From NCBI GenBank assembly GCA_001661245.1, contig KV454016.1, forward strand, positions 433,381-497,380: DNA of 64,000 nt, in the 5' to 3' direction. The position numbers and the translations under genes are program-made. The notes under the pieces were generated by a model. The model did not search any database and was not told the DNA's origin. It worked only from the letters and a program-made list of their open reading frames with translations. The stretch is from Pachysolen tannophilus NRRL Y-2460. Taxonomy: Eukaryota. This document shows, in pieces, positions 19,153-56,369 of the stretch; the first letter of the stretch is position 1; each line of letters begins with the position of its first letter.

Positions 19153-19671
19153 CCTCTCACCTCGTAGTCAAACTGTCAAAACCAAAACCACACAAGGGGG
19201 AGGAACCACTACACTAAACTAACCTAACTAACTAACTGACTGACTGACTGATTATTTCTAACCTACCTATGCTCTCTAGGTTGAAAAAGTTTTTAAAAAG
19301 TTTGAACTTTCTAACTATCATCATCGCTTCCACTAAAGTTTAGTACCGCTGAAAAATTCAAACGCTTCTGACCTTTTTAGTGCGTACTTATATTGCGCAT
19401 GAAAGCACACATTACAAACCTTGTGCGTATCCCAAATGCGGTATTAAACCTTCTATTGTTTTTTTTTGATTTTTTTCTTTTTTGAATTTGCATTTGCCCT
19501 TTTTCACGGTATTAATGATTTAAACCTGCCCTTGAAAAGCGAATGAGCACTTTTTTTTTTTTTTTTTTCAGCGATTCCTTTCCTAGGGGAAAAGTTGAGT
19601 TGAAATATATAAATTAAATCAATCATATATATGTACTGGTTGGAACTGCTTTAGATTTGAAGCAACATAAG

Positions 19672-20980
19672 ATGTCGGACGTAGAGGTAATTGGAAAAGG
19701 GGCACAACTGTCGAATCATGGGGTTATTAAGATAGGTACTAGAAAATCTGCTTTGGCAGTGGTACAAGCTGAGTCTGTTGCTGCTGAAATACAAACAAAG
19801 TTTCCTGGTTTAAGTACAAAGATTACAGCGTTATCAACTTTGGGTGATCAAATGCAACATAAACCTTTGTATTCCTTTGGTGGGAAGTCATTGTGGACAA
19901 AGGAGTTGGAAATATTACTTTTAGAAAGTGTTGGAGAGCATGATAAAATTGATTTGATTGTTCATTGTTTAAAAGATATGCCAACAAGTTTACCTGATGA
20001 ATTTGAATTGGGTTGTATTTTGGAAAGAGAAGGTATGTGTAAATTGAGATTCTTTTCTTTTGAAATAATTTTTTTTGAAATAATTTTTTTCTTGCTTTAT
20101 TCTTCATGATGATTTAAAAGATTTTTTCAGACGTTAGACTTCCTAATTTATATTGAGGATGAATCTTTATTCTGATCTTATATATTGCAAAGAAGAAAAT
20201 GAGGTTTTTTTTTTTTTTTTTTTTTTTTTTCTTTGAACAATTGATACTAACAAGAATTTTTTTTTTTTTATCTTTTACTTAGATCCAAGAGATGCATTGG
20301 TTATGAAAGCTGGTTCGAGTTACAAGTGTTTAGGCGATTTACCGGATGGTTCTGTAGTAGGTACCTCATCAGTTCGTCGTTCAGCACAATTATTAAAAAA
20401 TTATCCACGTTTACGTTTTAAATCTGTTAGAGGAAATATTCAAACAAGAATTTCTAAATTAGATGATCCAGATGCAGATTTTTCATGTTTATTACTTGCA
20501 GCTGCTGGATTAATAAGAATGAACTTACACAATAGAATTACACAATATCTAGACGAAGACAATATGCATTATGCTGTTGGACAAGGTGCATTAGCACTCG
20601 AAATTCGTAAAGGTGATGAATATATCCGTCAAATATGTTCCAAATTGAGACATGATGCAACAACATATTGTGGTCTTGCAGAACGTTCATTATTAAGATT
20701 TTTAGAAGGTGGATGTTCCCTCCCCATTGGATGTATTACTAATTACGATGAAAACAGTAAAATCTTACGCATGAAGGCAATGGTAGTTAGTTGTGATGGA
20801 ACTGAATCTGTAGAACAAAATTATAGTGCAAAAGTTGAAACTGATGATGATGCTGAAAAATTTGGTATTGCTATTGCTCAATTTTTGTTGGACAATGGTG
20901 CAAAGAAAATATTGGATGATATTAACTACGACAAGATTGAGGAAATAAAACAAGCTGGAATCACCAAGGGCACAAATTAA
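19672..20980 (+). CDS. HEM3: Porphobilinogen deaminase; two exons, join(19672..20032,20283..20980)
   Basis: IKIGTRKSALAVVQ, GGKSLWTKELE, VHCLKDMPT; splicing gives ILERE-DPRDALVMK; GTSSVRRSAQL, LEGGCSLPIG. Confidence 0.95.
20033..20282 (+). other. Spliceosomal intron of HEM3 (250 nt)
   Basis: GTATGT at 20033, TACTAAC 20245-20251, TAG 20280-20282; removal restores the reading frame. Confidence 0.93.
20102..20179 (+). ncRNA. Intronic box C/D snoRNA, snR58-like (predicted guide for 25S rRNA Cm663, S. cerevisiae numbering)
   Basis: Box C ATGATGA 20106-20112; guide AGACGTTAGACT 20129-20140 is complementary to 25S AGUCUAACGUCU; D'-like CCTA 20142-20145; C'-like TGAGGA 20154-20159; box D CTGA 20172-20175. 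Confidence 0.75.
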
Positions 20981-24184: not shown

Positions 24185-24631
24185 ATCCAACAACAAAATT
24201 AGAAATATAATTACAAATCAGAACAATACCAATCTATCTATATCTTTAATACCTCTCCCATCCAGTAATGGAGGGCCCAAAAAACCCAAAAAAACCAAAA
24301 AAAGGCTAAAAACAAATGCATACTTTATTGGGAAGTCAAAAGTGTAATTACCCAATGGGGAAACTGTTCCCGTTTAGGAAATTGTTTTTTTTTTTTTGTA
24401 ACTTTTTCCGAATTTTGATTTTGTTTGAAATTTTCTTTGAGTTTTTCCCTCAATTTGTTAACAGCGGTTAAAGAGAAGAAGAATAATTAGTGTGTTTTGA
24501 TTAGGACAAAGGTTAAGACAACCAGAGTGGATATAGGTATATCTTCAATTGATAGGAATCAGATTGGTATAGGAAGTTGTCAGAGCAGCTAGTGATTTGA
24601 TAAAGTTTTGGCTTTGTTTATTCGTTAATTG

Positions 24632-24746: not shown

Positions 24747-24790
24747 TTCATCTATCATCACGGAATAAGATTTATAACATTTGAGGAAGA

Positions 24791-24822
24791 ATGGCAGACG
24801 TGGCATATACTTTGGTGAATGA
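24791..24822 (+). CDS. SEC26: SEC26 (beta-COP) coding exon 1, MADVAYTLVN(D), separated from its intron by an inversion
   Basis: ATG GCA GAC GTG GCA TAT ACT TTG GTG AAT GA; matches the beta-COP N-terminal AYTLV motif. Confidence 0.85.
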
Positions 24823-25860
24823 CTTTTTAAGTAATTTAACAACATCTTCAACATTTCTACTAGAAATTAATTGTAAAGTGATATCAATTGCTCTTCTACG
24901 AACTTCTAAATCTTGTGATGATAAAATTCTTAAAATTTCTAAAGTTAAATCGTCCAACATACCAGGATGATTCTTATGAAGTTCCAATACTCTTTCTAAA
25001 GTGATCAATTTAACATTATTATCTGGTTCTTTTATAGCCAATTCAATAAATTTAGAAGCTGCTGCTGTTACAGCAGTTGGTGAATGAGACAATATAGTCA
25101 ATGTTGTAGCTGCTTCATATATGACTGTATTTGATGTTGTATCCAACAAATCAGAGATAATACTTAAATATTGATTTCTTAAATCCGAATGTTCAACAGC
25201 ATCTTTACGAATGAATTCAACAAATGATAATTGTAATAAAGGATCTAAAGTGGCTAAAGATTGCAAATTATCTTGAATATAACGTAATGCGGATTCTCTT
25301 TGTAAGCTACCAAGACAAACAAAAGCATTTCTTTTGCAAGTTGAATCAGTTTCTACAGCCAAGAAATCAACTAATAAATCAGCAGCATCAAAGATTAAAT
25401 GTTCTGAAACTTTAAAAATGGAATAAATTGCAAATACAGCATTTTTACGAACATAAGCATGACGATGTTCTAAGCATAATCTTGCTGAAGCAACCAATGG
25501 TTCCAATAATTCTGGTTCTTTTAATTTTGATAAAAATCTTAAAGTATTTCCTCTAATATATTCATTTGGATGTTGTAAATCATGTTGAATTGCATTACAA
25601 ACCAAGATCATTTCTTGCTTTAATTTACCATCAGGTTCCAACTTGGGGCAAATTTCCCAATAAAAATATAATAATTTTTTCAATTCTTTATCTTTTGAAG
25701 GCATTACATAACGTATAACATACATCAATAACTCAGGCATCAAATTACCATTCAACATGGTAATTAAAATCCTTCTCATAGCATCAAGCTTATCTTCATC
25801 TTTGCCCTTTTCCAACAGTGATCTAAACTCTTGAACAGAAGTCTTGGATGAATTATTTGG
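24823..25860 (-). CDS. SEC26: SEC26 (beta-COP) residues ~12-357, inverted relative to the rest of the gene
   Basis: After the TAG acceptor: PNNSSKTSVQEFRS.LEKGKDEDK...HPNEYIRGNTLRFL...SRNVEDVVKLLKK; similarity ends at ~24823. Confidence 0.92.
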
Positions 25861-25965
25861 CTAAAAAAAAAAAAAAACAAAACAAACAAACAAATATGGA
25901 ATTGTTAGTATAATAAATTAAACAAAAAAAACAAACAAGCAAACAAAAACAACACAAATACATAC
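25861..25965 (-). other. SEC26 coding-region intron (105 nt) inside the inverted segment
   Basis: On the - strand: GTATGT from 25965, TACTAAC 25910-25904, TAG 25863-25861. Confidence 0.88.
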
Positions 25966-25966
25966 A

Positions 25967-27781
25967 GAATTACAGAAAACTTCAAATTCAAACGAAGAAA
26001 AATTTGCAGAATATAGACAAATCTTAATTTCTGCAATTCATTCTTGTGCTATTAGATTTGCTGAAGTTGCTGCAAGTGTTGTTGATCTCTTATTAGATTT
26101 TATGGGTGAATTAAATACAACTGCAGCAGTAGATGTTATTACATTTGTTAAAGAAGTTGTTGAAAAATTCCCAGCTTTACGTACTTCAATTATCCATAGA
26201 TTGATCACTGCATTATCTAAAGTTAAAAGTGGTAAAGTTTATAGAGGATCGTTATGGATTCTTGGTGAATATTGTCTTGATGAAAAAGATATCTTGGATG
26301 CTTGGAACCATATTAGATCATCTATTGGAGAAATTCCAATCTTAGCAAGTGAAAAGAAAGCTTTACAAGATGCTGCTACAGGAACTGGATCTGATGAAAA
26401 AGAATCAAAGACAAATGGTGCTGTTTCTCATAAACCAGTTGTTCTTCCTGATGGTACATATGCCACTGAGAATGCAATGACTGTTGATACTGCAACTAGT
26501 AATGAGGCAAAATCTGAAAGACCACCAATTCGTCTGTTAATTTTGGAAGGTGATTATTATCTTGGTGCGGTATTATCTTCAACTTTAGTTAAATTAGTCT
26601 TGAGATTTGAAGAAATAACACAAAAATCAAAGGTTAACGTTTTAAATGCATTAAAAGCTGAAGCTATGTTGATCATGGTATCTATATTAAGAGTAGGTGA
26701 TTCATCATTTGTTAAACAAAAGATTGATGAGGACTCTTCTGAAAGAATTTATTGTTGTATCAATTTCTTGTCAGAAGATAACAGTTCAACAGATTCTAAA
26801 GAATTTAAATTAATTGAATCTGCCTTCTTAGAATATACAAGAGAAGCATTTAAGAAACAATTAGAAATTGAAGATAAAAAGAAAGCCAAGCAAGATTCTG
26901 ATGAATTGGAAAGAAATGCAGAAAAAGTTGATGATTCGATTGTTTTCAGACAATTATCAAAAGAAGATATTAAAGATGTAGTTGATGACGAGCTATTGGC
27001 AGATCAAAACGTGGTGGCAACTACCAAGAAAGAAGATTTATCATCAAGACTTAATCATATTGTTCAATTAACAGGATTTTCTGATCCTGTTTATGCTGAA
27101 GCATATGTAAAAGTCCATCAATTTGATGTGGTTTTAGAAGTGTTAGTTGTCAATCAAACAACTGTTACTTTACGTAATCTCTCTGTAGAATTTTCAACTT
27201 TAGGAGATTTGAAAGTCATTGATAAACCAACCACTTCAAACATTGGACCTCATGGTTTCCATAGGGTTTCCACAACAATAAAAGTTACATCAGCCGATAC
27301 AGGTGTCATATTTGGAAATATTGTTTATGATGGCCAACATGCAAACGAGTCTACCATTGTCATCTTAAACGATGTTCATGTTGATATCATGGATTATATC
27401 AAACCAGCATATTGTAAAGAAAATCAATTCCGTAAAATGTGGAATGAATTTGAATGGGAGAACAAGATTACTATCAAGTCCACTTTGCTTACATTACAAA
27501 GTTATCTCGATCTGTTGTTGAAAGGAACAAATATGCAATGTTTAACGCCTGGTGCTATAATTGGTGGAGACGAATGTCAATTCTTATCTGCTAATTTATA
27601 TTCTAAATCTTCTTTTGGAGAAGATGCTTTAGCGAACTTGTGTATTGAGAAGAAAAATGATGGCCCAATTGTTGGTCATGTTAGAATCAGATCTAAGGGA
27701 CAAGGATTGGCATTGAGTTTAGGTGATAGAGTTGCTTCTGTCGCTAGAAAGACAAATAAAAGTGTTACTGCTAGTGTTTGA
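25967..27781 (+). CDS. SEC26: SEC26 (beta-COP) C-terminal ~604 residues
   Basis: Open frame from 25967: ELQKTSNSNEEKFAEYRQILISAIHSCAIRFAEVAASVVDLLLDFMGELN...LPDGTYATE...QLTGFSDPVYAEAY...RIRSKGQGLALSLGDRV. Confidence 0.93.
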   Translation, partial: ELQKTSNSNEEKFAEYRQILISAIHSCAIRFAEVAASVVDLLLDFMGELNTTAAVDVITFVKEVVEKFPALRTSIIHRLITALSKVKSGKVYRGSLWILGEYCLDEKDILDAWNHIRSSIGEIPILASEKKALQDAATGTGSDEKESKTNGAVSHKPVVLPDGTYATENAMTVDTATSNEAKSERPPIRLLILEGDYYLGAVLSSTLVKLVLRFEEITQKSKVNVLNALKAEAMLIMVSILRVGDSSFVKQKIDEDSSERIYCCINFLSEDNSSTDSKEFKLIESAFLEYTREAFKKQLEIEDKKKAKQDSDELERNAEKVDDSIVFRQLSKEDIKDVVDDELLADQNVVATTKKEDLSSRLNHIVQLTGFSDPVYAEAYVKVHQFDVVLEVLVVNQTTVTLRNLSVEFSTLGDLKVIDKPTTSNIGPHGFHRVSTTIKVTSADTGVIFGNIVYDGQHANESTIVILNDVHVDIMDYIKPAYCKENQFRKMWNEFEWENKITIKSTLLTLQSYLDLLLKGTNMQCLTPGAIIGGDECQFLSANLYSKSSFGEDALANLCIEKKNDGPIVGHVRIRSKGQGLALSLGDRVASVARKTNKSVTASV

Positions 27782-30475: not shown

Positions 30476-30813
30476 TTAAAAAACTTAAAACATCTATTCC
30501 ATTCTATTCCATTCTAGACAGAAATTACAATCCTATATATATATATACATTGTGATATGCATCTGTGGCACGGAGTTATCTAGATCTGCTTTCCTAATTA
30601 TATAGACGTTATCGTTGTCTTAAAATTTATATCTATATTTTTTTTTTTTTGAATTATTTGAATTTTTGTCTTTATATAATTTATTTACATTTTTGATTAC
30701 TTGACTTTTGATCAGACTTGAATCTTTGTGAATTTCCTACCGAAGATAAAATATATAATATATATATTTATATATAGATATAATTATTTATTTATACGCA
30801 TCATCATATTGAC

Positions 30814-31854
30814 TTATGGATCCATTTCTTTAAAACTCTCAATTTTCGAATGTTGTAACCAATCTTCACCCAATATTTTTAATCTAATACAACCATTGAA
30901 TTTTTGATCTTTAACCAGCTCTAACCAGTCACTAATTATTAAGTTTAAAATTTTTCTCAGTTGTAAACCGTACAGTTGTAAAAACTCTTTACAACAAGAT
31001 TCCCACCAGTTGCACACTATAAAGAAATGGACATTTTGTAAACGATCTAATGGTAAGTTCAACAATCTTGATAAAAAAAGCCAACTATATGAAATAGGTA
31101 ATGGGTGAGGTTTATCGTTAGCAACATCTTTAATAGATAGTCTTGTCATTACCGAATATAGTGTCACAATACCACCAATTCTCTCGTTATATTTAGTTTC
31201 TTCTTCCCATTTATTATCTCTCCTTTTCCAACCCATCCTGAGTCTTCCTTCTTCAGTGTCAATGGAACATGTATAACCAATCAAGTACGGACATTTCTTA
31301 ACAAATCTTGCTATAAGATAATATTTCAAATCTGGGAATAAAATTAATAAATTAAGTGCCAATTTAGCTAAAGGTATTGAATGTTGAGGTTTAACAATAA
31401 TTTCCACCTCTGCTTGAGATATAATTTCTTTAGCTATAAAATTCAATATGAAATTATATGCTAATTCATTTAATTGTGATTTTACTTCTGAAATTAATTG
31501 ATAAATTTCATTTGTTATTTCGTTTAATTTTGAACCAGAATTAGTCAACTGTCCAAACTTTGGATTTATCTTTCTCTTATATTTATTTGTCAGTTGTTTT
31601 AAAGCCTTATCTGCAAATAATGGTTCTTTTACTGTCTCTTTAATCTGTATTATATCTTGTTTATATTTGAAAAAATCTTTTTCAATACCACTAAAATTTG
31701 TTATTCCAATATTTCCCTTGGCTTCTTCTTCTTTTCTTTTCAACTCATCTTGTTGTTTCTTTATTTTTAACTCTTCTTCTTTTCTTTTCCTTGCCAATTC
31801 TTGTTGTTTAAGTAATTCCAGTTTCTTCCTTTGTTCTTCTTCTTGTTCAAGTTT
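30814..31854 (-). CDS. GLE1: GLE1 (mRNA export factor) C-terminal ~346 residues, lacking its own start in this orientation
   Basis: KLEQEEEQRKK...ITNF...KRKINPKFGQLTNS...NFIAKEIISQAEVE...ARFVKKCPYLIGYTCSIDTEEGRLRMGWKR. Confidence 0.92.
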   Translation of the reverse strand, partial: KLEQEEEQRKKLELLKQQELARKRKEEELKIKKQQDELKRKEEEAKGNIGITNFSGIEKDFFKYKQDIIQIKETVKEPLFADKALKQLTNKYKRKINPKFGQLTNSGSKLNEITNEIYQLISEVKSQLNELAYNFILNFIAKEIISQAEVEIIVKPQHSIPLAKLALNLLILFPDLKYYLIARFVKKCPYLIGYTCSIDTEEGRLRMGWKRRDNKWEEETKYNERIGGIVTLYSVMTRLSIKDVANDKPHPLPISYSWLFLSRLLNLPLDRLQNVHFFIVCNWWESCCKEFLQLYGLQLRKILNLIISDWLELVKDQKFNGCIRLKILGEDWLQHSKIESFKEMDP

Positions 31855-31862
31855 TCACTCAT
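31855..31862 (-). CDS. FMN1: Displaced FMN1 start (ATG AGT GA) at the edge of the inverted segment
   Basis: ATG at 31862-31860 on - is out of frame with GLE1 but in frame with FMN1 after re-inversion (MSEKQESADKVRP). Confidence 0.75.
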
Positions 31863-32068
31863 AGTTCCAATGTTTCACTAAATCTCTTGTCGTCTTGATC
31901 TTGGTGATGATAATTTTGTATGTGTATAAAAAATGATTGAAAACTCAAAAAGCCAAAAAAAAAAGAAAACATTTATAGTTATATTTATATATTATATAAA
32001 AGATTTATATAAATATCTTTAAATTGTTTTATAATAGAGAGGATAGATTCAGTTTCCATTAGAGGATC

Positions 32069-32563
32069 ATGAGGGTGTCTTTGGATGATATCTATAGTGG
32101 GAAGAATAGGTCAGAGATAAAGTATGGTAATCCAAGAGATGAATTTGAAGCGATTTTACTGGATGATAAAATAAGAGAGCTGTATTTATTAGCTATTGGA
32201 AATAGACAAGATAATATAACATCATCATCTCAGGTATTAGACACATTGACTTCTTTGGATCATGATCCTGCAAAGATTTTAAATGATTTGATAGGTGGTT
32301 GGGTGTCAAATTATAAACAAAAGATAATACAGCAAAATGATTTAGAGAATTCTTTTAAAAATTTGAAGATTAAAGAAATTAAAGATAGAAAAGATAATGT
32401 TGGTAAAATGTTTATGGATGATTTATCAAATTTTATCAAGGATCAAGATAATGAGATTGATAGTGTAATATTGAGGATTCAAGAGGAAAAAAAAATGAAG
32501 GAATTACAACGTCAAAAATTAATACTGGAGAAAGAACAAAAGAAAAAGGAAGAAGAAAGAAAG
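32069..32563 (+). CDS. GLE1: GLE1 N-terminal ~165 residues, inverted
   Basis: MRVSLDDIY...; ends in coiled-coil EEKKMKELQRQK...KKKEEERK, which continues in frame into KLEQEEEQRKK of the - strand fragment after re-inversion. Confidence 0.8.
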
Positions 32564-33161
32564 GAAGCAGGAGTCAGCCGATAAGGTGAGACCTCTTTCT
32601 TATCCAGATAAACCAATTTCTCCTCGTTTCCCGATATTGGTGAGACCTACTGCTATAATATCTGGTTTTGGTAGAGGATCCTCAGAATTAGGAATACCAA
32701 CGGCCAATGTTGAATCAAATGAAGTCTTGAATAGTTTGGAGACTGGTGTTTACTTTGGGTATTGTAAGCTCTTTAAACCTGAGGGTAAGAACCATTCCGA
32801 GATTATTGAATCCAAACTGATCAATGATAGAACTAGGAAAATTGAATTCAATTATGGCCTAGATTTGCCATCAAATGAATTAAATCAAGTTTACCTGATG
32901 TCGATGTCATTAGGTTATAACCCATTTTACGGGAATTTGATTGAAAAAGCTGTGGAGATCCATATTATCCATGATTTTAAAGGTAAATCATTTTATGGTT
33001 GTAATATCTCATTTGTGATCTTGGGATACTTAAGACCGGAATTGAATTTTAGCAGTTTACAAGTTTTAATCGATGAAATCAATAAGGACGTAGAAATAAC
33101 AAAACAGTTATGCTCTAAAGAAGGATACCTCAGTTATAAACACTTGTTTGATGATATATAG
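32564..33161 (+). CDS. FMN1: Riboflavin kinase, lacking its ATG in this orientation
   Basis: IISGFGRGSSELGIPTANV, ETGVYFGY, MSLGYNPFYGN, EIHIIHDF...FYG, LGYLRPELNF. Confidence 0.92.
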
Positions 33162-33351
33162 TAGTAGTAGTTGTTGCTGTTTTTGTTGTTGTTATCGTTG
33201 TTGATGTTGTTGATGTTGTTGATGTTGTTGTCTTCTTATCTCTTTTAAGTATAAAATGACTGCTTTTTTTTTTCTTCTTCTTTAATAGAAACTTGCTTTC
33301 AAAAATATATTTTTAGTTAATTTGCCATTTTGATATTATATTCCATTATAG

Positions 33352-35523
33352 ATGTTCAATATCAAGATAGCATCACTAGTGACGCGAGTGTTGGTTTTGG
33401 TATCCGGTGTGAGTCTGAGTGGGTTAACTATTGATGATGATGTTGAGAACGACGTTTGCAAATTGCCAATACCTTTTAAAGATGAGTACTGTCAGTATAT
33501 TGTAGATAATTGCAATTTACGTATTTTCAATTATTCTAAACTTTACTATTGTTCATCATATGATCATGGAATGATATTATTGATGTTATTTTCATTATTG
33601 ATTGTCTTTTTCATAACTTTGGGTATAATAACTTCAAATTTCTTATCACCAAATTTAGCACTGATATCATCGATTTTACAATTAAATGAGAGAATAGCTG
33701 GATTAACATTATTATCCTTGGGAAATGGTGCTCCAGATATTTTTAGTACTTATCAGGCCATGTCATCCAATTCAACTTCTTTAGCAATTGGAGAGTTGAT
33801 TGGAAGTTGTAATTTTGTCACATGCTTCATTGTTGGGTTGATGGGTATAACCAATCCATTTAAAGTACATGGACTGGAATTTTTAAAAGATTTGATCTTC
33901 TTTATGTTACTTTTACTCATGAGTTTTACTTTTTTACAAGATGGGAAATTAACATTACTTGAATGTGGATTCATGTGTTGGGTTTATATTTGCTATATTG
34001 TATTTCTTGTGGTTTACAATCTTAAAAAAAATGCAGAATTACAATTATATGATGATGAAGAACAATCTATTAGAAATTCACCTCAGAATCCAACAATGAG
34101 ATTATATTCTCCTTCAAGTAATAATGTGGATGAATCAAATAATCTAGAATTGATTGGAAAATTGAATCGATACTTGAAATTTGGTAATCTTCCAAGACTT
34201 TCAGTTTTTGATTCTTTAAAATTCTTGAATATGGAACAAGAATCTAACAACATTACCGATGCAGATTTTGGAGAGAATGTTTTAAACAATAATGATGCCA
34301 ACATTGCTTATGATGGCAATGATGGCGATGATGGCAACAATAACACTCAAGACCATGAGGAGCTTCATCAAGAGTCTTCTACTAAAAATAATAATCTATT
34401 AGCCCTGCCTAAAGCTACAAATCCAGCTTTAAGCAGGATAACTGAGCAATTGCTATTATCTAGAAGCACCAGCTACAATTCCATTCAAAACACGATTGAT
34501 GACCTTGAAACTGATGGAAGATCACCTGTTTCGCCAATTTCGCACATTTCTGTGCCCCATATGGCGGTATACACTCAAACAAATGATGAAGGCAATGATG
34601 ATATTTCATCAATTAACAAGGAAGGACAAATATGTTATTCTCTTGGAGATTATTTATTTCCTGAGTTGAATTCTTTCAAATCAAAAAAATTGTATGAGAT
34701 AATTCTTGCATTAGTCAGTACTCCTATAATATTTCTCTTGAGTTTGTTTATGCCAGTTTATCATGAACCAGAAGAAATGAATTTACATGAAAAATCATTG
34801 AAGAAAAAAGAATTTGAATTGAAATTAAAACTATTGAATTTGAATTTAACTCTATTACCATTTTTAATCAATGATTTTTCAATTTTACAGAGCTTGATCA
34901 CTGATTTCACTATAAGTGAATCAGACCGAAAAATTTTGACTTCATCACTAATAATACTGTCACTCAATTTAATTGGATATTTTATTTTCAAAAATTTTGA
35001 AATTTATCATCGTATTTATAAGCATGTATTACCAATATTAGGGTTTATATCATCATTATTTTTTATAACTATTATGACTTCGCAAATCATTAAAATTTTG
35101 AAAAATTTGGGTCTTGTTTTTGAAATTAACGAATCCTTATTAGGACTTACTGTTCTTTCGTTGGGAAACTCGATAGGTGATTTGATCTCTAACTTGACTT
35201 TGTGCAGTTTAGGTTTCCAACTAACATGTCTTAATGCATGCTTTGGTTCTCCGTTGATGTATATGTTATTAGGAGTTGGTTTGAATGGACTCATAATCAT
35301 AACATCGAATTATTATCAAGGTGATCATGATAATTTGTTTATAGAATTTGAGGTCAATGATAATCTCAATGTCAGTGCCATTGGATTGTTAGTTATATTA
35401 GTTTTTTATATTATTGTCATTCCATTTAATAATTGGAATTTTGGAAGAAAAATAGGAATGGTTGGTGTTTCTTGGTGGGTTTTAATTACTTTAGTCAATA
35501 TTGGAATGGAAGGGTATACTTAG
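33352..35523 (+). CDS. Ca2+/cation exchanger (CCX family; YDL206W/Ecm27-like)
   Basis: alpha-1 repeat AGLTLLSLGNGAPDIFSTYQAM and alpha-2 repeat LGLTVLSLGNSIGDLISN...ACFGSPL; many hydrophobic segments. Confidence 0.88.
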   Translation: MFNIKIASLVTRVLVLVSGVSLSGLTIDDDVENDVCKLPIPFKDEYCQYIVDNCNLRIFNYSKLYYCSSYDHGMILLMLFSLLIVFFITLGIITSNFLSPNLALISSILQLNERIAGLTLLSLGNGAPDIFSTYQAMSSNSTSLAIGELIGSCNFVTCFIVGLMGITNPFKVHGLEFLKDLIFFMLLLLMSFTFLQDGKLTLLECGFMCWVYICYIVFLVVYNLKKNAELQLYDDEEQSIRNSPQNPTMRLYSPSSNNVDESNNLELIGKLNRYLKFGNLPRLSVFDSLKFLNMEQESNNITDADFGENVLNNNDANIAYDGNDGDDGNNNTQDHEELHQESSTKNNNLLALPKATNPALSRITEQLLLSRSTSYNSIQNTIDDLETDGRSPVSPISHISVPHMAVYTQTNDEGNDDISSINKEGQICYSLGDYLFPELNSFKSKKLYEIILALVSTPIIFLLSLFMPVYHEPEEMNLHEKSLKKKEFELKLKLLNLNLTLLPFLINDFSILQSLITDFTISESDRKILTSSLIILSLNLIGYFIFKNFEIYHRIYKHVLPILGFISSLFFITIMTSQIIKILKNLGLVFEINESLLGLTVLSLGNSIGDLISNLTLCSLGFQLTCLNACFGSPLMYMLLGVGLNGLIIITSNYYQGDHDNLFIEFEVNDNLNVSAIGLLVILVFYIIVIPFNNWNFGRKIGMVGVSWWVLITLVNIGMEGYT

Positions 35524-40827: not shown

Positions 40828-43293
40828 TTATTTCTTGATCTCCTCTCCTATTAAAGTGGAAGGTGTGCTTTCTCTTGTGCGACTATCTTCAGATTGTGCG
40901 TATAATTTTCTACTTCTCCCCGCCCCAGTGTCGGTAGCTGCAGCTGCTGCTGCATTAGCATTAGCAGTATCAGCGGTAGTAGTAGTAGTAGTAGTAGTAG
41001 GAGTAGTAGCGGTCCCACCAAGGTCCACCACCCCAACAATTTGAAAATCGCTATTATCTATTGTTCTGGATTTTGGATTTTTCAATTTTAATTTCTTCTT
41101 TTCGTATCGTATTTGTTGCTGTCGTTCATAATTTAATTCTTTTTCTGTAATTATTTTTAATAAATCATCTTTGCTCAGAATTAAATCAGTCATAAGTTGA
41201 TTGGCAAAATTGATGTCACCTTTGATTAGCTGATCATTTTCATTTTTAATATAAGCTATATGCGGTCGTAAAATTAAATGCATAAAGGGAATGTATCCTA
41301 TTTTGCCCTCTAAGTTTAATAACATTTCCCTTTCTTTACCTAAAGTTGAAATATCGTTTATAATAGCATATAGACTAGATAAACTCACTCTTGATAAATC
41401 ATTGCTAATCCTAGTAATTATTAATTTTCTTCTTCTTAATTCATCTTGTTCTTTGTATAATTGTTTTAATGATTCATATGAAATACTTGGTATGATAGAA
41501 TCAGGTAATTCTAATAACCATATTTTCAAAATTTGAATCAATTCTTTTTCATCAAGTTCAATTTTTGTCATATATTTTTTTTTCATAAATTCTAATGATT
41601 CAAAATTTAAACAATTGAGCCATAATTCTTTATCTTTAATTCGTGATAACGTATCATATAGAAAAAATGGTAATGATTTTTCATGAACTTCAACTTTGGC
41701 AAATTCTGATTTCTTTCTATAAGTAGATAAATCAGATCCAAATAATGGTGGGAAATCTTCATCGAAATTTGTTATTTCTCTTTCAGTAGCTCCTAAAATT
41801 TTAATTCTTGAATAAATTGAATTATATAATGGATTCACTGAATAAATCCCTCCATTTGTATTATTTTTGATAACAACTTGTGTCAATTCTTTTAAATGAT
41901 TCTCTAAATTATCTTGATTATCAACAAGTTGATTCATATCTTGTAATATTTTTAAATTTGTCAAATGATCTTGTTGTAAAATTTTAGTCAATTTGTTAAA
42001 AACATTGTATATGAATTCAACTCTACTATATTCTTTTTCTTCAATTTCTTTGTTAATTTGGAAAATATTTGTTTCCAAGTTTGATCTTAATTCACTCCAT
42101 TCAATATATAAATCTTTTGCCCTTTCAGATAATAATTTTTCATTTTCCTCCAAAGATTGAATATTGTTTCGATTAGAAGTTGGAATATAAGTTGATAAAG
42201 ATGATAAAAATTTAGGCAGCAGCTGTAAATCTTCTTCTAATTTCTCAATTTTTACACCTTGGGGATCAAAATTCATAATAAATTTATATAAATCAGTATA
42301 TTCAAACCATAAAGATTCATCATCACTTTTAAATTTACCAAATTTTTTAGTCAAGTTACCTATTTGTAAAAATTTGTAATCTAATAATGATTGACCAATT
42401 TTCTCAATTTGAAACCTACTCAATGCTTGATTTTCTTTATTAATACATCCATTAACAGAACCAAAATTAATTTTTCTACTAGGAATGATATTTTTCAATA
42501 ACCAATTTTTAAAATCTACAACATTAAACGTTTCAACACTAGTTGTTACAAATGGGAACTTGCTGATAGTTTTAGGTAACGTGGAATACATGTGATTCAA
42601 AAACCCACATAATTGGTAATGATCGTTAAAAGTTAAAGTACCATCACCTAAAATCAATGGAAATTCAATTGGATAACCCTCTGTAGATTTGAAATTATCC
42701 AAACTTGTAGTACTAAATTTTGAAGTAATGAAATTAACAGAATTAAAAACAGATGAACCAGAAGGTGTCCTGCTTCTCTGCAAATTTATACTTTGAGAAT
42801 TGGGCACAGAACCTATCTTGAATTCATGCAATTTATTAAGATTACTGATATACTGTTGCTCTAATTTTTTCAACTCTTTTGATTTTAAATTATATGCATC
42901 TAAATTACCTAATAATTTTTGCTTACAATCATCAATAAAATTCTTGTATGATTCAATGAATTGATTTAAAGGTACTATTAACTTGATTTGTAATATTTTA
43001 GTTAAAACTAACTTTGAATCAAAATGATCTTGTAATTTACCCAAAATTGAATTAAACAAGGAATTTAAATCTTCTTCAAATAAATTTTTCTCAGAATTTT
43101 TAATAATCAAATCATGACCATTATCATAACTCCTAGTAACACAATTTTTTTCAAGCATTTTCAAAAAATTATTTTGGAAAAAAATTAAACTTGAATAATT
43201 ATGATCCAATAATGAGATGCTATTCTTAATACCCAATTCATAATTCAATGACCAACATCTATTACTTAAATGGATGGCTATATCATCCACCAT
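40828..43293 (-). CDS. Divergent F-BAR/DEP/RhoGAP protein (Rgd2/Rgd3-like)
   Basis: N-terminal CWSLNYELGI (F-BAR start), DEP-like EKIGQSLLDYKFL, LFGSDL and LKIWLLELPDSIIPS RhoGAP signature. Confidence 0.65.
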   Translation of the reverse strand: MVDDIAIHLSNRCWSLNYELGIKNSISLLDHNYSSLIFFQNNFLKMLEKNCVTRSYDNGHDLIIKNSEKNLFEEDLNSLFNSILGKLQDHFDSKLVLTKILQIKLIVPLNQFIESYKNFIDDCKQKLLGNLDAYNLKSKELKKLEQQYISNLNKLHEFKIGSVPNSQSINLQRSRTPSGSSVFNSVNFITSKFSTTSLDNFKSTEGYPIEFPLILGDGTLTFNDHYQLCGFLNHMYSTLPKTISKFPFVTTSVETFNVVDFKNWLLKNIIPSRKINFGSVNGCINKENQALSRFQIEKIGQSLLDYKFLQIGNLTKKFGKFKSDDESLWFEYTDLYKFIMNFDPQGVKIEKLEEDLQLLPKFLSSLSTYIPTSNRNNIQSLEENEKLLSERAKDLYIEWSELRSNLETNIFQINKEIEEKEYSRVEFIYNVFNKLTKILQQDHLTNLKILQDMNQLVDNQDNLENHLKELTQVVIKNNTNGGIYSVNPLYNSIYSRIKILGATEREITNFDEDFPPLFGSDLSTYRKKSEFAKVEVHEKSLPFFLYDTLSRIKDKELWLNCLNFESLEFMKKKYMTKIELDEKELIQILKIWLLELPDSIIPSISYESLKQLYKEQDELRRRKLIITRISNDLSRVSLSSLYAIINDISTLGKEREMLLNLEGKIGYIPFMHLILRPHIAYIKNENDQLIKGDINFANQLMTDLILSKDDLLKIITEKELNYERQQQIRYEKKKLKLKNPKSRTIDNSDFQIVGVVDLGGTATTPTTTTTTTTADTANANAAAAAATDTGAGRSRKLYAQSEDSRTRESTPSTLIGEEIKK

Positions 43294-43846
43294 TTTTCAC
43301 TGTTTCATAGAAGTTTTCAAAACATATATAAAAAATTTACCAAAACAAAAATGATAAATACAATTTATCTACTTACTGGTGGTACAAAACATGACGGTAT
43401 TAAATAAAAATCAATAGTACCTTTTATAAAGAAAGATAAAGACACTAAACTTGATGAAGTATTAAATGCATGTTTCTCGAAAATGCACACGACTGTACAA
43501 TATGTCCGAACCCTACAAAATACTAGTCAAACTAGTCAAAACCAATTGATATTAATGATATTAATAATATGTTGAACATTATATATATATGTTTTATATA
43601 AGTGTTTTTTTGATTTTTTTATTTTGTTGCCTTTCAATGTATGGAAATGTTAAGTGAAAGTAAACGTTAACAAAAATTAATTTTGAAGAGGCAAAATAGT
43701 AATAAAAAAAAAAAAAAAAAAAATTAAATGAAAAAAATGGTTATGTTGAATCCTGAATCCTAATCCTGATATATGAATTACAAAAAAAAAAATTTCCGGC
43801 TTAAATTTATGTTATGTACAAGAGCATAAAATGCGCATTAAAGAAC

Positions 43847-54634: not shown

Positions 54635-56369
54635 TTTTTTTTTGCAGTTGATGAAGAAGGAGATTTGATTAGTTGGTTCATGCTCAGATCCAGTAATTGG
54701 TTGCTGGGTGGTTTAATGCAACTGAATCAGAACTTTCGTAGAACTGCAATTGACCGGTTAAAAAAAGTGGTACATATGGTTAATTATAAGATGGTACCTG
54801 AAGTAAAGTTAGTCAATTTGTCTGTTTTTCGTTGTATTTTTTTTTTTTCTTCTTTTTTGTTGATACACATATACTAACGTTTTCCAATAATTTTTTTTTT
54901 TCAGAGGTGATATCGGTCTTATTGGATTGGCCGTTATGGGTCAAAATTTGATCTTAAATGCTGCTGACCACGGATATACAGTTGTTGCTTTCAACAGAAC
55001 AGTTTCTAAAGTTGACCATTTCTTGGCAAATGAAGCCAAGGGCAAATCAATCATTGGTGCTCATTCTGTTGAAGAATTAGTTGCCAACTTGAAAAGACCA
55101 AGAAGAATTATTTTGTTGGTCAAGGCAGGAGCTGCAGTTGATGCATTTATTCAAAGTTTACTTCCTCATTTGGAGAAAGGTGATATCATCATTGATGGAG
55201 GTAACTCCCATTTCCCAGACACTAACCGTCGTTTTGAAGAGTTGAAGGAACAAGGTATTTTGTTTGTTGGTTCTGGTGTTTCTGGTGGTGAAGAAGGTGC
55301 TAGATATGGTCCTTCATTGATGCCAGGTGGTCATAAAGATGCTTGGCCACATATTAAGGAAATTTTCCAAGCCATTGCTGCCAAGTCTGATGGTGAGCCA
55401 TGTTGTGATTGGGTTGGTGATGCAGGTGCTGGTCATTACGTTAAAATGGTTCACAATGGTATTGAATATGGTGATATGCAATTGATTTGTGAAGCTTACG
55501 ATTTATTAAAAAGAGTTGGTGGTTTTGAAGATAAAGAAATTTCTGATATTTTTGCCAAATGGAATAAAGGTGTTTTAGATTCCTTTTTAATTGAAATTTC
55601 TAGAGATATTTTGAAATACAATGATACCGATGGAACTCCATTGGTTGAAAAAATCTTGGATACTGCAGGTCAAAAGGGTACTGGTAAATGGACTGCCATC
55701 AATGCTTTAGATTTAGGTATGCCAGTTACCTTAATTGGAGAGGCTGTCTTTGCAAGATGTTTATCTGCTATAAAATCTGAACGTACTAGAGCTTCAAAAG
55801 TTTTGGGAGGACCAACGATTCCTAAAGATGCAATCAAGGATAAACAAGCTTTTGTTGATGAATTGGAACAAGCCTTATACGCTTCCAAGATTATCTCATA
55901 TGCTCAAGGTTTCATGTTGATTAGAGAAGCAGCCAGAGATTACAAATGGGATTTGAATTTCCCATCCATCGCTTTAATGTGGAGAGGTGGTTGTATTATT
56001 AGATCTGTCTTTTTAGGTGAAATCACAGCAGCATACCGTCAACACCCAGATTTGGAAAACTTGTTGTTCCATCCTTTCTTCAACAACGCCATCACCAAGG
56101 CCCAATCTGGCTGGAGATCAACAGTCTCAAAGGCTGTCCAATACGGTGTTCCAACTCCTGCATTCTCCACTGCCTTGGCCTTCTACGACGGTTACAGATC
56201 AGAAAGATTACCTGCAAACTTATTACAAGCACAAAGAGATTACTTTGGAGCCCACACTTTCCAAGTCTTACCAGAAGCTGCTAATGACCACTTGAAGGTT
56301 GGTAGCAACATCCACGTAAACTGGACTGGTAAAGGTGGTAACGTCTCGGCAAGTAGCTACGAAGCTTAA
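54437..56369 (+). CDS. GND1: 6-phosphogluconate dehydrogenase; join(54437..54450,54905..56369)
   Basis: Spliced start MSAPK-GDIGLIGLAVMGQNLILN; GSGVSGGEEGARYGP, VKMVHNGIEYGDMQ, QAQRDYFGAHT. Confidence 0.95.
54451..54904 (+). other. Spliceosomal intron of GND1 (454 nt)
   Basis: GTATGT 54451, TACTAAC 54872-54878, CAG 54902-54904; frame restored on removal. Confidence 0.92.

Follow-up and report, generated by a model that had tools for sequence, protein, structure and literature searches.

Two neighbouring genes, GLE1, which encodes an mRNA export factor, and FMN1, which encodes riboflavin kinase, are both interrupted in the deposited sequence of the locus described here, which lies in a 64,000-nucleotide stretch of Pachysolen tannophilus DNA (hereafter the window). 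The C-terminal part of GLE1, consisting of codons 166-511 and the stop codon, occupies 30814..31854 on the minus strand, where it was recognized as a stop-to-stop open reading frame with a Pfam GLE1 domain. It adjoins a segment of 709 bp, 31855..32563, whose orientation relative to its flanks is the subject of this analysis. At the left end of the segment (31855..31862, minus strand) are the first eight bases of FMN1, which run from the ATG to the second base of codon 3 and are written here as the reverse complement of ATG AGT GA. These are separated from the divergent GLE1 start by an AT-rich spacer of 206 bp (31863..32068), which, from its position, is presumed to be a promoter region shared by the two genes. 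The remainder of the segment, 32069..32563 on the plus strand, contains GLE1 codons 1-165, assigned on the basis of the open reading frame and an alignment with 12 orthologues. The body of FMN1, which resumes at the third base of codon 3 and ends with the stop codon, follows at 32564..33161 on the plus strand and was identified by its Pfam Flavokinase domain.

As deposited, the C-terminal part of GLE1 is headless. Its 346-aa frame has no start, the first in-frame Met being residue 207, and it matches the Pfam GLE1 family (PF07817) over the whole profile (positions 1-249 of 250) with an E value of 8.3e-88. On the plus strand, a 171-aa ORF begins with the ATG at 32069, within a frame extending over 32063..32584, and ends with a stop at 32584. 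This ORF is a chimera of the GLE1 N-terminus and a six-residue tail that is read out of frame in FMN1, and it has no match to any Pfam family. It is overlapped, in another frame of the same strand, by a 212-aa frame (32523..33161) that matches the Flavokinase family (PF01687) with an E value of 3.5e-26 over profile positions 11-123 of 124. The FMN1 body is startless in this form, since the first in-frame Met is residue 126, within the Flavokinase domain.

When the segment 31855..32563 was reverse-complemented by script, a 511-aa ORF was obtained on the minus strand and a 201-aa ORF on the plus strand, the latter starting at the FMN1 ATG carried by the segment. Frame repair alone is an imprecise guide to the breakpoints, as 29 of the 144 breakpoint pairs tried restore both ORFs. 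The joints in contigs assembled from public sequencing runs are far more specific: in all four runs they fall at 31854|32563 and 31855|32564. At each joint the shorter side has 255 letters, and no letter fits both sides. The contig joints thus fix the breakpoints, and the segment coordinates 31855-32563 can be taken as exact. An earlier note on this DNA, made from the sequence alone, had given these limits as approximate and had described the structure correctly in every detail: the FMN1 start on the minus strand at 31862, the AT-rich spacer of about 200 bp and the first 165 or so codons of GLE1 inside the segment, the GLE1 N-terminus running out of frame into FMN1 as far as the stop at 32584, the lack of an N-terminal ATG in FMN1 as written, and the repair of both frames by one flip. 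Its suggestion that the breakpoints could slide by a base or so did not hold, because the bases at 31854/32564 and those at 31855/32563 are both t/g and so are not complementary.

The public runs were compared as Logan contigs, a form of assembly that drops rare variants. The stretch was found in five public runs, each containing 0.96 of the sampled words, and this share agrees with a simple calculation in which about 100 of the 2371 possible 31-mers overlap one of the two junctions or a homopolymer at 31954. Four of the runs were placed on the window: X1, X2, and X3, which share one sample, and X5, which belongs to another study. The library behind the deposit may be among them. In each of the four, one contig of 6.7-9.4 kb spans at least 30797..34000, and in three of them the spanning contig begins at 29482 or 27991. 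Over 12 kb the contigs of all four runs have no letters other than those of the window, i.e., no base substitutions, and their identity to the window in all other respects assigns them to the same strain.

Within a single contig in each of these runs (4/4 runs, two samples, two studies), 31855-32563 and its two flanks lie on opposite strands. The contigs cross the true junctions unbranched, with word depth equal to that of the neighbouring sequence (4 runs). The deposited orientation is absent from the contigs of all four runs, among which rare forms could escape representation. As far as the contigs show, then, only the repaired orientation is found, which is the outcome that the earlier note had named as one that would refute its reading. 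Other joints of the "skipping" type in the contigs were taken as chance, having sides of only 20-24 letters in AT-rich sequence of low complexity.

The identities of the repaired genes are supported by their relatives. Among 212 relatives of the 346-aa piece, the closest named ones are called mRNA export factor GLE1. The repaired 511-aa protein aligns from end to end with 12 orthologues, chosen from 120 listed, and it opens with M-R, which is common to the orthologues; the alignment is continuous. The junction is at column 311 of 705 in this alignment, within an E/K-rich coiled coil, and because such a coiled coil is of low complexity, whole-length alignment across it is permissive evidence. 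When the N-terminal piece alone was compared with the closest orthologue, the best E value was 0.15, which is not significant. Its assignment as the GLE1 N-terminus rests on its position, on the shared MR start, and on the register of the coiled coil.

FMN1 has 140 relatives, of which the named ones are called riboflavin kinase or FMN1. Its junction is at codon 3, so that alignment says little there. The orthologues start approximately 20-25 residues before the GFGRGSSE motif, and in the repaired FMN1 this distance is 36 residues. The locus tags of GLE1 and FMN1 follow one another in Eremothecium cymbalariae (5119/5120), Tetrapisispora phaffii (0C01930/0C01940), and Lachancea mirantina (0B05050/0B05072). 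Consecutive tags in three other yeasts indicate that intact GLE1 and FMN1 as neighbours are a conserved layout.

The broken form of the locus is present in public protein collections. By exact look-up, the 171-aa chimera (P0121) was found in NCBI, UniRef, nr, and MetaClust, and the 346-aa headless GLE1 piece (P0001) in NCBI and MetaClust; both entries are on a contig of 1,128,252 nt. The best match of the FMN1 body is the deposit's own FMN1 model (P0122), a 145-aa protein labelled "partial"; its contig is equal in length to that of the other two entries, and its source assigns it to Pachysolen tannophilus NRRL Y-2460. Gene models were evidently built on the inverted sequence, giving three fragment models. 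The entries match the ORFs at 30817-31854 and 32069-32581 only when CUG is read as Ala (translation table 26). Our use of table 26 rests on these exact matches between table-26 translations and collection entries, and they agree with the earlier assignment of the organism to the CUG-Ala yeasts. A tRNA scan of the window returned no genes.

A second inversion of the same kind lies a short distance to the left, at 24823..25966, and holds, from SEC26 (the gene for coatomer beta), the 5' intron together with some 343 codons at the start of exon 2. It was recognized from Pfam matches and from the contigs. The Adaptin_N profile is split, with positions 2-345 matched on the minus strand (24775-25860) and positions 337-476 on the plus strand; the latter match and two coatomer-beta C-terminal domains lie within 25922-27778. 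Flipping 24823..25966 produces an open frame of 950 aa. The segment reads as containing the SEC26 5' intron, with GTATGT, TACTAAC, a poly-T tract, and TAG, and one break of the inversion falls a single base ahead of the GTATGT. In each of the four runs, a contig joins 24823 straight to 25967, on opposite strands. We infer that the far junction joins 24822 to 25966; about 110 contig letters past 24822 were skipped as a repeat.

Five homopolymers of T or A, each about ten or more bases long (at 24384, 27801, 30637, 31954, and 33263), are 1-2 bases longer in the contigs of each of the four runs than in the window, and these differences are probably length errors in the consensus of the deposit. 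When the starts of 35 long ORFs in the window were checked, only the pieces at the two inversions were startless without a visible reason. HEM3 (porphobilinogen deaminase), at 19618-20977, consists of two same-strand ORFs approximately 130 bp apart that match Pfam profile positions 1-96 and 96-206, and the gap between them has the appearance of a normal intron rather than of a break. The frame of a 6-phosphogluconate dehydrogenase (54891-56369) begins after an F-rich stretch, with 15 codons preceding the first Met, and the gene may have a short 5' exon followed by an intron. An 822-aa ORF on the minus strand (40831-43296) has no Pfam match at 1e-5.

In our judgment, with a probability of roughly 85%, the deposited assembly has the 709-bp segment in the wrong orientation by error, and the inversion is not a state of the chromosome. 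The genome itself would then have GLE1 (511 aa, minus strand) and FMN1 (201 aa, plus strand) as intact, divergent neighbours with a spacer of about 206 bp. The record and the read-assembled sequence disagree in orientation at both segments, and re-orienting them restores GLE1, FMN1, and SEC26, as is typical of a misjoin. The presence of a second blunt inversion and five homopolymer differences within 12 kb further supports trouble in the consensus of the record. GLE1, FMN1, and SEC26 are all essential in Saccharomyces cerevisiae, and for this reason three broken genes in one viable culture would be implausible. The error may have been made after contig building, e.g., by mis-orientation of a small piece in scaffolding or finishing; a post-assembly step is suggested because neither read overlaps nor k-mer paths can produce blunt junctions that have no bases in common.

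The usual cause of inversion misassembly is ambiguity at flanking inverted repeats. That cause was considered and rejected here, as there are no such repeats at the joints and no shared letters. In other respects the locus resembles inversion-type local misassemblies: a segment of the record is the reverse complement of what the reads show, conserved genes are broken and are restored by re-orientation, and there are further consensus errors, here in homopolymer lengths, in the same record. The absence of the usual flanking inverted repeats is a difference, and it counts to some extent against an assembly error, since a blunt, base-perfect, repeat-free inversion is an unusual product of an assembler. 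A literature search found, in the parts of the sources that were available, no paper on errors of this kind in this P. tannophilus record.

The blunt, base-perfect joints also resemble what would be left by two breaks and a rejoining, and the gene models of the deposit were built on the inverted form. The inversion could therefore be a real rearrangement that is confined to the culture or clone used for the deposit, either subclonal or heterozygous, with other cultures intact. We consider this improbable. It would require two events of this kind inside 7 kb, with SEC26, GLE1, and FMN1 broken, and the contigs, which are from the same strain with no other letters, pass through the true junctions unbranched and at a depth like that of their neighbours. 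Alternatively, a minority of cells could carry the inverted form, generated by recurrent two-break inversion, independent of repeats, at promoter-proximal sites (SEC26 being another), with the assembler having fixed the minority form. This is very doubtful; if true, it would imply that small blunt inversions near gene 5' ends have a source not known so far. Two blunt and base-perfect inversions are also what an in-silico operation would leave, and the inversion could have been introduced into the window by editing or processing and be absent from the public record. The exact matches to the 171-aa chimera, a protein that is possible only if the sequence is inverted, and to the 346-aa headless piece, together with the 145-aa partial model, place the inversion in the deposit itself, and we give an edit of the window almost no weight.

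The earlier note had pointed out that the layout resembles an invertible switch acting on both genes at once. On this reading a programmed invertible promoter would turn GLE1 and FMN1 off together, the deposit having captured the "off" orientation. The resemblance is real in that the segment carries the presumed divergent promoter and both starts, so that one flip alters both genes, and P. tannophilus does have a genuine invertible region at its mating-type (MAT) locus (PMC6692504). A switch at GLE1/FMN1 is nevertheless scarcely credible. The note had seen no inverted repeats at the junctions, and this was borne out both by a repeat search and by the contig joints, which have zero shared sequence. 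Terminal inverted repeats were absent; the search returned only low-complexity GAA/TTC arms of 23-32 nt with 75-78% identity, off the joints, which belong to the coiled-coil coding region of GLE1 and would be direct repeats in the intact gene. Of the window's 36 ORFs of 120 aa or more, none matched a recombinase or integrase family (Pfam, E value at most 1e-5). A single orientation was seen in all four runs, and turning off three essential genes would have no plausible benefit. The switch-like interpretation of the layout is thus unsupported by the junctions, by the ORFs of the window, and by the orientation in the four runs. The note's own reservation, that a fixed natural inverted state is unlikely, is in keeping with the repaired orientation of the contigs in 4/4 runs.

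Comparison with known invertible systems leads in the same direction. In bacterial switches of the fim and hin type, short terminal inverted repeats are acted on by a site-specific recombinase, and coding sequences remain intact. Those switches and the GLE1/FMN1 locus both involve inversion of a short, promoter-bearing segment, but the locus has none of the features just listed, and its host is a eukaryote. Another parallel is offered by the flip/flop MAT regions of the yeasts Ogataea, Komagataella, and Pachysolen, in which the orientation of a chromosomal segment decides which genes are expressed, as it would here. Those regions are 8-138 kb in length with inverted repeats of ~2 kb, both orientations are viable, and the Pachysolen region is 8 kb flanked by 2-kb inverted repeats (PMC6692504). 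The GLE1/FMN1 segment, in contrast, is 709 bp long with repeat-free flanks, its inverted state destroys two genes, and the runs contain it in a single orientation.

If, as we think, the inversion is an orientation error of the assembly, the feature belongs to the record as an artefact, and no new biology follows from it. Its significance is for users of the sequence. A reference for a CUG-Ala yeast would contain, in 12 kb, two or more segments in the wrong orientation, and fragments derived from it, namely the 171-aa chimera, the 346-aa headless GLE1, and the 145-aa partial FMN1, have spread into NCBI-derived collections. If the local rate held genome-wide, which is an extrapolation, there would be many more such sites. 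The useful outcome would be a flag on the assembly and on the three fragment protein entries, as the record in its present form could mislead studies of gene loss, of the rates of small inversions, of synteny, and of intron and promoter structure in this yeast.
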